From Candidatus Omnitrophota bacterium (GTDB lineage: Bacteria; Omnitrophota; Gorgyraeia; Zapsychrales; JBAZNR01): a stretch of 64,000 nt of DNA. Numbering within the stretch: the stretch's first letter is position 1; each line of letters opens with the position of its first letter. The position numbers were made by a program, and so were the translations under genes. The DNA lies in the NCBI GenBank assembly GCA_041649175.1, contig JBAZNR010000001.1, positions 1,039,497 through 1,103,496 on the forward strand, written 5' to 3'. A model generated the notes under the pieces. It was not told the origin of the DNA. It ran no database searches and saw nothing but the letters and a program-made list of their open reading frames with translations. Shown here one piece after another: positions 13,159 to 20,268 of this stretch.

Positions 13159-14315
13159 CCCGACTTCTTACGATCTTTTGTTTTGTATTTATTTTAGCCA
13201 CCGGCTATTTGCGGGCGGCGCCGGAGCCTACGTATGCCTCGAAAGCAGTTCGCGTGGCTATTTTGCAGGATAAAAAGGAATTTAAGTTGGCGATCCACGG
13301 GAAATTTTCGATTCACGATGATAAAGATCATCAAACTCTTTTCGAAGATCGATTATTGCGCAAGGCCAATGTCAAAGTGACCGAGTATGGTTTTTTGATC
13401 GGAGACATGCCTTATTCTCAAAGGAAGATTAGGATCATTTCCGCCAAAGATGCCACCATTGATATTGACGGGCGCCGTTATCGCGGAGAAATCGATATTT
13501 TGCGCGATAGCAACAATCGCCTTTTAGTCATCAACATTGTTGGCTTGGAGGACTACGTTAAAGGCGTCCTTTATCACGAGGTTTCGCACCACTGGCTTTT
13601 GGAGGCCTTGAAGGCTCAGGCTGTGGCCGCCAGGACTTATGCGCTTTATCGCATGGAGCTTTCCAAGAATAAAAGCTATGATTTAACAAGTGATATTTAT
13701 TCGCAAGTTTACGGGGGAAAGAATTCCGAACGGTTTCGTACCAATTTAGCCGTCGATAAAACGCAAGGATTGATCCTGACTTTTAAGGGAAAGATCTTGC
13801 CGGCATATTATTCGGCAACATGTGCCGGAGCAACAGAAGATGCCGCTGAACTCTGGAAGGAAAATTTACCGCCTTTGAAAGGTGTTGTTTGTGACTATTG
13901 CAAGAACTCCCCTCACTATTTTTGGGTGAAAAACTTTAGACTTAAAGATATTCAGGATAAACTCAATGCCCGCGGTTATGAGCTGGGATTGATCGAAACG
14001 ATCACTATACTGGAGCGCAATGAAAGCGGGCGCATCAAAACCTTAGAGATCAAGACTCGAGACGGGAAGGTCATGAATATTTCGGGAAAAGATTTTCGTA
14101 ATATCGTCGGGCCGAATGCGATCAAGAGCAATAATTACGCGATCGAAATGAAAGGTTATTATATGGATCTGGTTGGAAAAGGATGGGGACATGGCGTGGG
14201 CTTATGCCAGTGGGGAGCGCATTTTATGTCCCAGGCCCGTTTTACTTATGAGCAGATCTTAAAATATTATTATCCCGGGGCGGAGATTGTTTCGTATGAA
14301 GCTAAGGGATTTTGA
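13143..14315 (+). CDS. SpoIID/LytB-domain protein (secreted amidase-enhancer-like)
   Basis: A signal-peptide-like N-terminus (MEPKITRLLTIFCFVFILATGYL) is followed by a SpoIID-type domain. The start was moved from 13008 to ATG 13143 so that the protein begins with the signal peptide. Confidence 0.75.
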   Translation: MEPKITRLLTIFCFVFILATGYLRAAPEPTYASKAVRVAILQDKKEFKLAIHGKFSIHDDKDHQTLFEDRLLRKANVKVTEYGFLIGDMPYSQRKIRIISAKDATIDIDGRRYRGEIDILRDSNNRLLVINIVGLEDYVKGVLYHEVSHHWLLEALKAQAVAARTYALYRMELSKNKSYDLTSDIYSQVYGGKNSERFRTNLAVDKTQGLILTFKGKILPAYYSATCAGATEDAAELWKENLPPLKGVVCDYCKNSPHYFWVKNFRLKDIQDKLNARGYELGLIETITILERNESGRIKTLEIKTRDGKVMNISGKDFRNIVGPNAIKSNNYAIEMKGYYMDLVGKGWGHGVGLCQWGAHFMSQARFTYEQILKYYYPGAEIVSYEAKGF

Positions 14316-15315
14316 TTATGATCTACCCAAAGAGCTGATTGCGCAAGAGCCGCTTTTAAAGCGTGATCAAGCGCGGCTGATGATCGTTGATCGCAAGGCA
14401 AAAGAAATTCGACACGATGTTTTTGCCAATATCGGAAAATATTTACCCCCCTTGAGTACGATCGTTGTTAATGATAGTAAAGTTATTCCTGCCAGGATTT
14501 TCGGGAAAAGGGAAACCGGAGGAAAAACTGAAGTTTTTTTGTTGAATCGTTTAAGCGATGGATATTCTTTTGAGGCATTGATTCGCCCCCTAAAGCGTTT
14601 AAAAATCGGAGAAAAAATTTATGTGGGCCCAAATGGCTCCGAGAGAGCCATTTGGGCCCAACTTATTGACCCTCATAGAAAAATAGTCCGCTTTAATAAG
14701 AAAAATATTTTTCCCTATTTAAACAAAATCGGCCATATGCCCTTACCGCCGTATATTAAAAGGGAAGACACAAAGCAGGACCAAGAATATTATCAAACTG
14801 TATACGCAAAAAATGCCGGCTCAGTCGCATCGCCGACGGCAGGATTGCATTTCACCAGAACTTTATTGTCAGATCTAAAGAAAAGCGGGCATTCCTTAAA
14901 GAAAGTGACGCTTCATGTGAACTTCGCGACGTTTAAAGCCGTTGAAGAAGAAAATATCACAAGCCACCAAATGCATTATGAAAGTTATTCTTTGTCATCG
15001 GCGACCCTTGCCTCTATTCAGAAAACGAGATCAAACGGAAGAAAAATTGTTGCCGTTGGAACAACCAGCTGCCGTGTTTTAGAAACGGTGGCTCAGAAAA
15101 AGAAATTAATGGGTGATACAAATATCTTTATTTATCCGGGCTATCAATTTCAAATGACGGATTGTTTGATCACCAATTTTCATCTTCCCAAAACAACTCT
15201 TTTTATGCTTGTTTGCGCCTTTGCCGGAAAAGACCTTATGCAACACGCATACCAGGAGGCAATTCGGGAGAAATACAGATTCTTTAGTTATGGCGATTGC
15301 ATGTTTTTAGCTTAG
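14296..15315 (+). CDS. queA: S-adenosylmethionine:tRNA ribosyltransferase-isomerase
   Basis: The N-terminus MKLRDFDYDLPKELIAQEP is the canonical QueA start. Length is ~340 aa. The six-frame ORF begins at TTG 14287. Confidence 0.9.
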   Translation: MKLRDFDYDLPKELIAQEPLLKRDQARLMIVDRKAKEIRHDVFANIGKYLPPLSTIVVNDSKVIPARIFGKRETGGKTEVFLLNRLSDGYSFEALIRPLKRLKIGEKIYVGPNGSERAIWAQLIDPHRKIVRFNKKNIFPYLNKIGHMPLPPYIKREDTKQDQEYYQTVYAKNAGSVASPTAGLHFTRTLLSDLKKSGHSLKKVTLHVNFATFKAVEEENITSHQMHYESYSLSSATLASIQKTRSNGRKIVAVGTTSCRVLETVAQKKKLMGDTNIFIYPGYQFQMTDCLITNFHLPKTTLFMLVCAFAGKDLMQHAYQEAIREKYRFFSYGDCMFLA

Positions 15316-15336
15316 GGCAGTTTTGTCACTTTTTTA

Positions 15337-15364
15337 TTGACAAAATTTATTTTTGGTAGATAAT
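15337..15364 (+). promoter_or_regulatory. Near-consensus sigma70 promoter upstream of the Rrf2 regulator gene
   Basis: TTGACA at 15337-15342, a 16-17 nt spacer, then GATAAT/ATAATC at ~15359-15365. Confidence 0.6.
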
Positions 15365-15365
15365 C

Positions 15366-15379
15366 GCATATAGATATGC
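15366..15379 (+). promoter_or_regulatory. Palindromic operator-like site GCATAT-AG-ATATGC abutting the -10 element
   Basis: Perfect 6-2-6 inverted repeat immediately 3' of the -10. The sequence is related to the site upstream of nirK. Confidence 0.5.
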
Positions 15380-15414
15380 TATTATTGATCAAAGACAAGA
15401 TTTGAGAAGAGACC

Positions 15415-15810
15415 ATGCTAAATAAAACAAGCTTGCAAACCGTTAAAGCACTCATTGAACTTGCCAGGCTTCCTCGCGGCCAATGGGAAGGAGCCGCGAG
15501 TATTGCCAAAAAGATCCGTGCCCCGCAAAATTATTTGAGTAAAGTTTTGCAGTGGCTTTGTAGTAAGAAAATCGTTGAATCTCAAAAAGGGTTTGGCGGA
15601 GGGTTTCGTTTAGCTCGTGACGCCCGCAAGATCTCTTTATTTGATGTTGTAGAGCCCATTGAAAAGGTGAGCCGTTGGGGAGGTTGCTTCTTAGGAAAAA
15701 GGAAATGTTCTGATACTGCTCCTTGCTCGGCTCATCATGAATGGTCAGGCGTGCGAGAGAAGTATCTGGAGTTTTTAAAAATAACGACTTTAGCCGATTT
15801 GCTGGACTAA
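15415..15810 (+). CDS. Rrf2-family transcriptional regulator, NsrR-like (putative NO/nitrite-responsive repressor with Fe-S ligand cysteines)
   Basis: 131 aa with an Rrf2 wHTH N-terminus and three clustered Cys residues (CFLGKRKCSDTAPC). It lies directly upstream of nirK-nnrS. Confidence 0.8.
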   Translation: MLNKTSLQTVKALIELARLPRGQWEGAASIAKKIRAPQNYLSKVLQWLCSKKIVESQKGFGGGFRLARDARKISLFDVVEPIEKVSRWGGCFLGKRKCSDTAPCSAHHEWSGVREKYLEFLKITTLADLLD

Positions 15811-15818
15811 TTTTTTTA

Positions 15819-15843
15819 CGCATAAATAGCATACAAATATGCG
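15819..15843 (+). promoter_or_regulatory. Nested palindrome CGCATA-AATA-GCATA-CAAA-TATGCG between the Rrf2 gene and nirK (candidate NsrR-like operator)
   Basis: Outer CGCATA/TATGCG and inner GCATA/TATGC inverted repeats. It overlaps a putative TTGCTG-16-ATAAAT promoter 22 nt upstream of the nirK ATG. Confidence 0.5.
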
Positions 15844-15864
15844 ATTACAACCCAAGGAGGCGAT

Positions 15865-17025
15865 ATGAATACATTCAAGAGAGTGGCATCCTTTTTTCGA
15901 TTGGGATCTTTATTTTTTGTATTTTTCTTTATCTTAACGGGATTAAGTTTGGCTCAGGGGAAAATGCATCTACGTTTACCGGCTTTAACCGAAAAGGCTA
16001 TTTTGACCTTTGCTCCGGAAGTGCCGCCGCCGATCACCAGAAAAAAACCGGCGGTGGTTGAAGTTCGCTTAAATTCCAGCGTGGAAACAGCGGAAATCAA
16101 AACAGGCCTGCAATATAAATATTGGACCTTTAACGGCCGTGTGCCGGGGCCTTTTATCCGAGCGCGTGCCGGCGATGTGCTTGAAATTCATCATACCAGT
16201 AGTGACGCCAGCGGAATGCCGCACAATGTTGATTTTCATGCGGTAACAGGGCCTGGGGGTGGCGCACCGGTGACAACAGTTGTGAAGGGGGAAGAGCGGG
16301 TGGCGTGGTTCAAGCTTTTAACTCCGGGGCTTTTTATCTATCATTGTGCCGCGCCGCCGGTGATGGACCATATCGCCAATGGTATGTATGGGCTTATTTT
16401 GGTTGAGCCAGCGCAAGGTTTACCAAAAGTTGACCGTGAATTTTATGTTTTACAAAGTGAGTTTTATACCAATAAAACTGAGTCGATGGAAGCAAAACCC
16501 GTCGATCATGAGAACATGGACAAAGAAGGACATCAAGATGATTTTTGGGGCGAAGAGGCAGGAAAAGAAACGGGGCCGACTTTGTTGCAATTTTCGCATC
16601 AGGCCGGGCTTGATGAGCATCCGACGTTTGTCGTCTTTAACGGAAAGTACAATTCGCTTGTGGGAGGAGGGGCTTTAAAGGCGAAGGTTGGTGAAAAGGT
16701 GAGAATTTATTTTGGAAATGCCGGCCCCAATTTGATATCTTCTTTTCATGTGATCGGGGAAATCTTTGACAAAGTTTATCGCGAGGGAGATCTGCTTTCT
16801 TCGCCCGGACGCGGTATTCAGACAACGCTGGTTCCGGCTGGTGGATCGACGGTGGTAGAATTTGCGTTAGATGTTCCCGGAACGTTCACATTGGTTGACC
16901 ATGCTATTTTTCGCGTAGAAAAAGGGGCTGTTGGGTTTCTAGATGTCGAAGGCAAAGTAAATCCCGAAATCTATACTTCTGATCAGGATGCGGTGGTTTG
17001 CAAGGGATGCATGGTTCATCCATAA
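15865..17025 (+). CDS. nirK: Copper-containing nitrite reductase (NirK)
   Basis: Signal peptide, HNVDFHA type-1/type-2 Cu ligand block and a C...H...M cupredoxin motif (CAAPPVMDHIANGMYG). Length is 386 aa. Confidence 0.85.
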   Translation: MNTFKRVASFFRLGSLFFVFFFILTGLSLAQGKMHLRLPALTEKAILTFAPEVPPPITRKKPAVVEVRLNSSVETAEIKTGLQYKYWTFNGRVPGPFIRARAGDVLEIHHTSSDASGMPHNVDFHAVTGPGGGAPVTTVVKGEERVAWFKLLTPGLFIYHCAAPPVMDHIANGMYGLILVEPAQGLPKVDREFYVLQSEFYTNKTESMEAKPVDHENMDKEGHQDDFWGEEAGKETGPTLLQFSHQAGLDEHPTFVVFNGKYNSLVGGGALKAKVGEKVRIYFGNAGPNLISSFHVIGEIFDKVYREGDLLSSPGRGIQTTLVPAGGSTVVEFALDVPGTFTLVDHAIFRVEKGAVGFLDVEGKVNPEIYTSDQDAVVCKGCMVHP

Positions 17026-17034
17026 GGGAAAAGC

Positions 17035-18240
17035 ATGAGTAAAAAATTTAGCAATTGGTGGGAAGCGGCTTGCCGGGAACCGTACCGGATCTTTTTTCCG
17101 TTGGGAGTATTGGCGGGAACGATCGGGATAGGGCATTGGCTTTTTTATGCGTTTCATTGGCTGCCGAAATATTCGGGATTTTTTCATTCGTCCATTCAAA
17201 TGATGGTTTATATGAATTGTTTTGTGGCCGGGTTTCTGATGACGGCTATTCCTCGTTTTACCGGCACTCCAACCGCCGAATCACGTGAGGTGCTTAGCTT
17301 TCTATTGATCTTAGGCGGTATGGCCACGTTTCTTTCCTTGGAACAATGGATCGTCGCGGAAGGGATGTTTATCGTCTGGCTTGTTTTATTGATGGCATTT
17401 GTAGGAAAGCGCATTGTGGCGCGGATCAGAGCCGGTTCGTCTGGCCAAAAGCCTCCGCTTGAAATGATGTGGGTTCCTTTAGGGATGATGACCGGGATAA
17501 GCGCGACGGCTTTACTGATGTTGGGGCAATTAGAGATCCTTCCTCGCTGGTCTTTGACGATTGGTAAACCGATGATGGATCAAGGATTTTTGCTTTGTGT
17601 GGTTTTGGGGATAGGCGGCTTTCTTATTCCTAGAGTTATGGGGACATATGCGCCTTTGCCATCTTCCGGACGTCTTTACGCCACCTTGTTCTTAGTTTTT
17701 ATATTTACTTTTATTTTGGAGGGAATGCAGTTGTTTTCTTGGGCTTACGGCTTGAGAGCTTTTGTGATGACGGTTGTTTTTATTCGCGCTAGAATTATCT
17801 CTAAACTGCCGGTTGCGAGAAGTTTTTATATCCGCTTGGTTTGGATTTCTGCGTGGATGACGGCCTTAGGATTATGGGGTGCGGCTTTTCTCCCGGATTA
17901 TCGCATTGTTTGGTTACATGTGACATTTATCGGCGGATTTAGCCTCATGGTTTATGCTATTGCTACGATGGTCATTATGTCGCATGCCGGCGAGGGAGAA
18001 CGATTACAAAAACCTCTGTGGATTTTCTGGATGATAGGCTTAGGAACGGTGATCGTTCTTATCAAGAGGTCTTTCGTGGCGTTTTTTCCGGATCAATATT
18101 TTCAATTTTTAGGGATGGCAGCTGCTGTTTGGCTTATCGTCGCAACAAGCTGGTTTGTTTTTATTATTCCGAGCATTCTAAAAATTCCCCGAGAAGATGA
18201 ATTCGGGAAAATGCATGAGCGAGCCGTAAGAGAAAAGTAG
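17035..18240 (+). CDS. nnrS: NnrS-family heme-copper membrane protein (NO-stress associated)
   Basis: ~12 predicted TM helices across 401 aa with conserved His residues. It is positioned immediately after nirK, as in denitrifiers. Confidence 0.75.
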   Translation: MSKKFSNWWEAACREPYRIFFPLGVLAGTIGIGHWLFYAFHWLPKYSGFFHSSIQMMVYMNCFVAGFLMTAIPRFTGTPTAESREVLSFLLILGGMATFLSLEQWIVAEGMFIVWLVLLMAFVGKRIVARIRAGSSGQKPPLEMMWVPLGMMTGISATALLMLGQLEILPRWSLTIGKPMMDQGFLLCVVLGIGGFLIPRVMGTYAPLPSSGRLYATLFLVFIFTFILEGMQLFSWAYGLRAFVMTVVFIRARIISKLPVARSFYIRLVWISAWMTALGLWGAAFLPDYRIVWLHVTFIGGFSLMVYAIATMVIMSHAGEGERLQKPLWIFWMIGLGTVIVLIKRSFVAFFPDQYFQFLGMAAAVWLIVATSWFVFIIPSILKIPREDEFGKMHERAVREK

Positions 18241-18293
18241 GTTTTTTTCGCTTTTAAGAATATTGCTTTGATCATGAAATGATGTTTTTTAGA

Positions 18294-18341
18294 GGGCGTC
18301 CTTGACGTCTTGTGAAACAAGACGTCAAGGACGCCCTTTTT
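18294..18341 (+). terminator. Rho-independent terminator after nnrS
   Basis: 19-bp perfect stem GGGCGTCCTTGACGTCTTG / CAAGACGTCAAGGACGCCC with loop TGAAA, followed by TTTTT. Confidence 0.85.
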
Positions 18342-18412
18342 GCTTTCTATATTTCTCATTGACAGCCCAGGGCTATATTGTATGCTACTATGCATCTTAA
18401 AAAGAAAATTGA

Positions 18413-20268
<1,856 letters not shown>

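Follow-up and report, generated by a model that had tools for sequence, protein, structure and literature searches.

An Rrf2 subfamily with its own 24-bp operator as a predicted NsrR-like, but separate, nitric oxide stress switch beside nirK and nnrS in Candidatus Omnitrophota

NsrR, known from E. coli, Bacillus, Streptomyces, Neisseria and Nitrosomonas, is the nitric oxide (NO)-sensing repressor of the Rrf2 family. Its regulon takes in hmp, ytfE/dnrN, nnrS and hcp, to which some species add nirK/aniA and norB; in the Streptomyces protein, Asp8 is the fourth ligand of the iron-sulfur (Fe-S) cluster. The stretch of DNA analysed here, called the window throughout (64,000 nucleotides (nt) of Candidatus Omnitrophota contig JBAZNR010000001.1), carries a module of three genes for an Rrf2-family regulator (rrf2), a copper nitrite reductase (nirK) and the membrane protein NnrS (nnrS), which a first-pass annotation of the sequence had read as an autoregulated, NO- or nitrite-responsive unit. 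The published NsrR motif is gATGyAT-N5-ATrCATc (Rodionov 2005, PMC1274295), and the same work has NsrR repressing nirK in Nitrosomonas, predicted over nirK (aniA) in Neisseria, and controlling nnrS and dnrN in many bacteria. Genes labelled nsrR have also been reported in Hydrogenedentota and Sumerlaeota genomes, without regulon analysis (PMC10866078). Our literature search found no paper describing the Rrf2 subfamily or the operator discussed below. Sequence comparison indicates that this Rrf2 protein and a 24-bp operator are a real, NsrR-like but separate NO-stress switch, because the operator is retained before NO-handling genes by relatives from at least six phyla.

Set in inverted orientation, the two operators of the window agree at 20 of 23 nt, as found by a repeat finder working with no prior pattern, and for this reason each is read as a 24-bp palindrome of the form TAATnGCAT-N6-ATGCnATTA (Table 1). 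Operator 1 overlaps the last 4 nt of the rrf2 -10 box together with the predicted transcription start. The near-consensus promoter followed by GCATAT-AG-ATATGC that had been described there is indeed in place, the promoter spacer being 16 nt and the palindrome core lying at 15366-15379, one base past GATAAT. The gap of 54 nt between rrf2 and nirK (15811-15864) contains operator 2, with 17 nt left between the operator and the nirK start codon. All parts of the nested palindrome previously noted in this gap are present (CGCATA at 15819-15824, GCATA-CAAA-TATGC at 15829-15842 and TATGCG at 15838-15843), but the outer CGCATA arm is not kept in two close relatives (L081 and L089), is probably a chance match and was rejected as part of the operator. 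The half-sites said to be shared by the two sites thus turn out to belong to two copies of one operator, of 24 bp rather than 14. The exact word GCATA-N4-TATGC occurs twice in the 64 kb, both times at the module, where 0.03 occurrences are expected, and two or more were seen in 0 of 100 shuffles. When the window was scanned with a weight matrix built from 85 non-window sites, that is from other genomes only, no further operator of 8 bits or more was found in the 64 kb; among 100 shuffled sequences the highest score was 17.1. A site with three mismatches at 19405, inside tgt, scored below 8 bits and was taken as chance.

A putative -10 box for nirK, ATAAAT, had been proposed to overlap operator 2. 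The overlap is there, but the promoter to which the box would belong is weak and does not appear in the list of the promoter scan. This possible promoter stands in the same register to its operator as the rrf2 promoter does, and the equivalent -10 box in L081 is AATAAT. The gap holds no terminator and no significant RNA fold (z = -0.6); the T-tract that directly follows the rrf2 stop codon was considered as a terminator and rejected, as it has no hairpin.

Conservation of the palindromes in orthologous regions had been set beforehand as a test, and both sites came through it. Scanning one genome per species gave 263 stretches encoding relatives, from which the best 80 loci were kept (L001-L080); these come from Omnitrophota, Planctomycetota (Gemmataceae, Thermoguttaceae and others), Ignavibacteria, Zixibacteria, Hydrogenedentota, Bdellovibrionales and a few further groups. 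The operator is found just upstream of rrf2 in 49 of the 80 loci, 25-60 nt past the rrf2 stop codon in 36, and in both places in 24. Of the sites with at most three mismatches, 88 fall in the 16 kb where operators are expected and 8 in the remaining 657 kb, which makes them 453 times denser in the former; four of the eight off-position sites themselves precede either the gene for a quinol NO reductase, qNor (L065, L077), or a hemerythrin-rrf2 operon (L067, L077). A count of 8-mers that uses no pattern at all arrives at the same element: CATGCGAT or its complement is present in 36 of 79 upstream windows, where 0.16 are expected, and words related to CATGCGAT top the downstream list. In two close relatives, L089 (78% identity) and L081 (74%), rrf2-nirK is found with both operators in place, and L084 (70%) has rrf2-nirK-nnrS with the upstream operator; the genomic contexts of all three differ from that of the window.

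The placement of the operator upstream of rrf2 is consistent with repression. On the 5′ side of rrf2, the distance between a TTGAC box and the operator is fixed and takes one of two values, giving two registers 8 bp apart. In the register of 10-11 nt (23 loci, from Ignavibacteria, Zixibacteria and about half of the Planctomycetota) the -10 box falls on operator positions 7-12 and is often a perfect TATAAT; in the register of 18-20 nt (17 loci, among them every one of the 8 scorable Omnitrophota as well as the window) it is made up of two bases and the first TAAT of the operator. As the distance of the TTGACA box is fixed, the -10 box comes to lie within the operator or on its border, and in both registers the operator is predicted to cover the -10 box and the transcription start, which is the classical position of a repressor. 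Furthermore, the rrf2 start codon is found 0-8 nt past the operator end in 15 of the 49 loci (L007, L023, L056, L065 and 11 more), which places it within a few bases of the predicted transcription start and suggests leaderless rrf2 mRNAs at those 15 loci. Where the operators before rrf2 carry TTGACA, the second operators carry a T-tract, followed by a G/C-rich 6-mer, 7-15 nt 5′ of the operator at 36 loci of several phyla.

The genes that lie behind the operator give the switch its likely function. The first gene 3′ of rrf2 was typed at 71 loci and the gene 5′ of it at 72. Downstream, a hemerythrin-domain protein comes first in 18 of the 71 loci, NnrS in 17 by Pfam and 20 by clustering (13 of them carrying DUF1858), a radical SAM protein in 7, COX2 in 6, COX1 in 6, of which 4 are qNor, and a cytochrome c in 4. 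The upstream genes, taken as control, spread over 85 families among 72 genes, with none in more than three loci. The 25 commonest families listed for each side include neither isc nor suf, and hmp was not seen among the 71 downstream genes. With downstream families this few, upstream families this diverse and isc/suf missing from both lists, the only conserved partners of the subfamily appear, on gene order, to be genes that make, remove or tolerate NO. Such partners may be combined, as in the operon rrf2-hemerythrin-qNor of L024. In one tally of the 80 loci, nirK was nearby in 2 and an NnrS-like gene directly 3′ of rrf2 in 1. Two loci, L027 (1485-6743) and L035 (5001-10353), have the operon rrf2-radical SAM-nrdD-nrdG-nirK, an order that puts an anaerobic ribonucleotide reductase between regulator and nitrite reductase, and in L001 (5001-9143) rrf2 and an operator are followed by a COX2-COX1-x-COX3 heme-copper oxidase operon; L007 and L018 open with the same COX2. 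The commonest target, at L005, L008, L015 and about 17 more loci, is an NnrS of about 620-630 amino acids fused to one or two DUF1858 domains; the window NnrS has no DUF1858.

We consider it likely that the window module is a self-contained switch for nitrosative stress and denitrification, in which Rrf2 regulates its own gene and represses nirK-nnrS in a NO-responsive manner. This is in essence what the first-pass annotation had proposed, and it is supported by the conservation of the operator in at least six phyla and by the NnrS, hemerythrin, qNor and NirK genes that stand behind the sites. In this model, a dimer of Rrf2 carrying an Fe-S cluster would bind both 24-bp palindromes, with NO as the presumed signal. 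Binding to operator 1, which covers the -10 box and transcription start, would block RNA polymerase at the rrf2 promoter, and the regulator would in this way limit its own synthesis. Binding to operator 2 would either block the weak internal nirK promoter or, the gap being without a terminator, place a roadblock in the path of polymerases reading through from the rrf2 promoter. NO would then attack the cluster, DNA binding would be lost, and rrf2-nirK-nnrS would be transcribed up to the terminator hairpin at 18293-18337. Repression, rather than activation, is the expected mode because the operator overlaps the -10 box and the transcription start. Since the promoter at operator 2 is weak, and the gap has neither terminator nor significant fold, most transcription of nirK-nnrS probably comes from polymerases that read through from the rrf2 promoter. 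That NO should induce the NO-producing NirK together with NnrS agrees with the logic of NsrR, which is documented for nirK of Nitrosomonas and predicted for Neisseria (PMC1274295).

The regulator itself belongs to a tight subfamily (52-78% identity) in which C91, C98, C104, H107 and W110 are invariant among 33 sequences, with the cysteines spaced C-X6-C-X5-C and followed by x2-H..W. The window protein had been described as a three-Cys Rrf2 regulator; the three conserved cysteines bear this out, but the protein has four in all. The recognition helix APQNYLGK and the wing SQKGxGGGFRL are nearly invariant across phyla, matching a conserved operator. An AlphaFold2 model (pLDDT 92.9) has the Rrf2 fold, with Foldseek TM-scores of 0.7-0.8 to CymR, IscR, RsrR and NsrR alike, so the families are not separable by fold. 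Cys91, Cys98, Cys104 and His107 align with Cys92, Cys98, Cys104 and His107 of IscR, and a Trp follows; by this analogy the four residues probably ligate an Fe-S cluster as in IscR. Several members of the subfamily are auto-annotated as IscR by the Joint Genome Institute (JGI). IscR, a [2Fe-2S] protein of the Rrf2 family that regulates the biogenesis of Fe-S clusters, is nevertheless a distant relative, as the identity to the E. coli protein is 25%, the window protein stays below the cut-offs of the IscR models (58 bits against 207.55 for TIGR02010 and 37.3 against 275 for NF008110), and isc or suf neighbours were not seen in the 80 loci, as judged from the 25 commonest families listed. The type 1 and type 2 motifs of IscR appear unlike the conserved operator.

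Likeness to NsrR is broad at the level of function. The two share the winged-helix fold of Rrf2 proteins and three conserved C-terminal cysteines, a palindromic operator of about 23-24 bp that has a GCAT...ATGC core and overlaps promoters, and targets among NnrS, hemerythrin-domain proteins (compare DnrN), NO reductase and NirK, with the regulator gene often adjoining a target. This common ground, together with a pairwise BLAST match slightly better to E. coli NsrR (29% identity, 53 bits) than to E. coli IscR (38.5 bits) and the nsrR label given to genes of Hydrogenedentota and Sumerlaeota (PMC10866078), would fit an ordinary, if very divergent, NsrR orthologue in poorly studied phyla. We regard that explanation as rather unlikely. 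Against the NCBIfam NsrR model NF008240 the window protein scores 42.8 bits where the cut-off is 182, a strict test given that the model describes enterobacterial NsrR, and all 33 of the 33 subfamily members fall far below that equivalog cut-off (E 5e-16 or worse) and match only the Rrf2 superfamily model. Scores of hidden Markov models are slightly higher for SufR-like and IscR models than for NsrR, and a sequence search of the PDB found IscR and RsrR weakly and did not retrieve Streptomyces NsrR. The operator here is TAATcGCAT-N6-ATGCgATTA, with N6 rather than N5 spacing and TAATc rather than gAT flanks. E. coli NsrR has C-X4-C-X5-C where the subfamily has C-X6-C-X5-C, and it lacks the His107 that, with Trp110, is invariant here. 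Position 8 is variable in the subfamily, and the Asp8-type residue of Streptomyces NsrR is absent. As curated models and the published motif define it, then, the subfamily is by sequence not canonical NsrR. The sub-cut-off scores, low identity, N6 operator and Cys3-His ligand region lead us to file it as a separate Rrf2 subfamily that is predicted to run an NsrR-like NO regulon; the earlier description as NsrR-like fits its function and logic but not its family membership. No member was found on plasmids of cultured bacteria, where the best match has 37% identity.

A bolder version of this view, which we put forward tentatively, is that the lineage is not an NsrR orthologue at all and may be an independently evolved NO sensor, having an IscR-like Cys3-His site, its own N6 24-bp operator, an autoregulated and often leaderless mRNA, and an undescribed pan-phylum regulon that would include the anaerobic ribonucleotide reductase and the heme-copper oxidase operon. 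The same regulon members raise the matter of the signal. It is conceivable, but in our judgement improbable, that the protein and operator are paired as we suppose and that the signal is oxygen, redox state or Fe-S/iron supply, as for IscR, RsrR and RirA, in the setting of a general anaerobic-respiration regulon. The Cys3-His107 set and following Trp, which match IscR and not E. coli NsrR, would suit such a signal, as would the slightly higher SufR-like and IscR model scores, the IscR names given by JGI, and the presence of nrdDG and a COX2-COX1-COX3 operon in the regulon. It is difficult to reconcile with the commonest targets, which are the classic NO-regulon families NnrS, hemerythrin-domain proteins (compare DnrN), qNor and NirK (PMC1274295), and with the absence of isc/suf from the 25 commonest families listed per side for 143 flanking genes; furthermore, de-repression by oxygen would turn on anaerobic enzymes at the wrong time.

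Several observations weigh against the preferred reading of a NO-responsive Rrf2 repressor acting at both operators. The anaerobic ribonucleotide reductase and the COX2-COX1-COX3 operon are not NO-specific and therefore leave room for an oxygen or redox signal. L084 is without a second operator, its rrf2-nirK gap being 37 nt, and the way in which operator 2 acts is uncertain, because its promoter matches the consensus at 6/12 positions. The sites that went into the weight matrix had been picked by a pattern that itself came from the window, a circularity partly offset by the repeat finder, the density comparison and the 8-mer count. Finally, when metagenomes were searched for the perfect palindrome without regard to the regulator, only 14 of the 54 matches directly adjoined an rrf2 of the subfamily; many of these rrf2 genes are followed by hemerythrin, qNor or NnrS. 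About 28 of the 54 lie in AT-rich contigs poor in open reading frames, from a few related samples, with repeated TAACGCATTAA/TTAATGCGTTA units, and the remaining matches are hairpin-like. The TAACGCATTAA/TTAATGCGTTA repeat family looks unrelated to the operator and possibly comes from a eukaryotic host genome. Its contigs include L093, L094, L100, L101, L103, L105, L107, L108, L110 and others (Ga0056114, Ga0056129, Ga0056130 and related samples). In L139 (3478-3521) and L145 (9898-9941) the perfect operator sits inside a 44-nt palindrome, gcaagtcaaaTAATCGCATATCAATATGCGATTAtttgacttgc, in an intergenic position, with no rrf2 on the contig. That the palindromes are something other than operators of this protein, whether chance inverted repeats, RNA hairpins, repeat elements or sites of another factor, is highly improbable and largely refuted by conservation: the unrelated metagenome contexts of the perfect 24-mer (ORF-poor repeat and terminator-like hairpins) and the unconserved outer arm in the window speak for it, but the excess of exact matches over expectation, the position-specific conservation beside rrf2 across at least six phyla, the lack of significant fold in the gap RNA and the fact that rrf2 itself is the only gene common to all sites speak against it.

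The order of the module, an Rrf2 gene, then nirK, then nnrS, was confirmed by Pfam and TIGRFAM searches. The three genes are co-directional and lie between queA (14287-15315) and tgt (18431-19609), with nnrS starting 9 nt past the end of nirK. The very strong terminator previously seen at the end of the module is borne out, its hairpin having 20 pairs by scan and 23 by fold (-42.4 kcal/mol, z = -9.1). Directly past it, and 5′ of tgt, is a promoter-like TTGACA-16-TATGCT (10/12 matches, 18359-18386). Both queA and tgt serve queuosine synthesis, and the module splits them (14287-19609). The G+C content of the module is slightly raised (0.46-0.49 against 0.41-0.44), and this, together with the other contexts seen in the closest relatives, is a hint of its insertion as one unit. 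By tblastn, no qNor, hemerythrin, NnrS-DUF1858, COX, NrdD or radical SAM gene was found elsewhere in the 64-kb window.

Table 1. Positions of the module's genes and signals in the window (position 1 is the first letter of the 64,000-nt stretch)
Feature	Position	Strand	Basis
rrf2 promoter: -35 TTGACA (15337-15342), 16-nt spacer, -10 GATAAT (15359-15364)	15337-15364	+	11/12 matches
Operator 1, TAATCGCATATAGATATGCTATTA	15361-15384		0 mismatches to TAATnGCAT-N6-ATGCnATTA; 29.5 bits
rrf2, Rrf2-family regulator, 131 amino acids	15415-15810	+	Pfam Rrf2, 3.4e-27
Possible weak nirK promoter: TTGCTG (15799-15804), 17 nt, ATAAAT (15822-15827)	15799-15827	+	6/12 matches; inferred, read from sequence
T-tract directly past rrf2 stop codon	15811-15817	+	63-83% T at -15 to -7 of the second operator in 36 loci
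Operator 2, AAATAGCATACAAATATGCGATTA	15824-15847		1 mismatch to TAATnGCAT-N6-ATGCnATTA; 27.7 bits
nirK ribosome-binding site AAGGAGG	15854-15860	+	read from sequence
nirK, copper nitrite reductase (AniA type), signal peptide	15865-17025	+	TIGR02376, 323.1 bits (cut-off 296.3)
nnrS, NnrS membrane protein, 401 amino acids	17035-18240	+	Pfam NnrS, 3.4e-29
Intrinsic terminator, long G+C-rich stem, then T-run	18293-18343	+	scan and fold

Of the two target proteins in the window, NirK has as its closest solved structures the AniA entries 5tb7 and 1kbv (E ~4e-102). Its copper motifs HNVDFH, YHCAAPPVMDHIANGMYG, SSFHVIG and LVDHAIF are invariant in five sequences and align to AniA, and the individual residues would be assigned to the two copper sites by analogy with known NirK structures. 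As predicted for Neisseria (PMC1274295), the gene is preceded by a palindrome of the type bound by Rrf2 repressors. It differs from the Neisseria case in that NirK is here predicted to be co-transcribed with regulator and NnrS, and in that the 64 kb hold no NO reductase. An acidic and His-rich insert of about 25 amino acids (residues ~206-235) is missing from the AniA alignment, which also stops short of an invariant C-terminal tail, C-x-G-C-[LM]-V-H-P (residues 379-386). Insert and tail are common to five Omnitrophota NirKs, that of the window included, and may form an extra metal or redox site. NnrS matches Pfam PF05940 over residues 14-382 with 102.8 bits (gathering score 28).

Taken at this strength, the analysis provides a concrete candidate operator, regulator and regulon for NO handling in phyla that have hardly any cultured members, or none. 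These phyla are frequent in groundwater, sediments and wastewater, habitats in which the turnover of NO and N2O matters. Rrf2 genes that carry a generic or IscR label in hundreds of genomes can be tied to NO stress, and the operator lends itself to the search for more NO-responsive genes in them. The subfamily, which would do an NsrR-like job with an IscR-like set of ligands, is also a natural comparison for the chemistry of Fe-S sensors. As for the Omnitrophota cell itself, with NnrS alongside NirK and no NO reductase in the 64 kb, its production of NO from nitrite seems to take place only under tight feedback.

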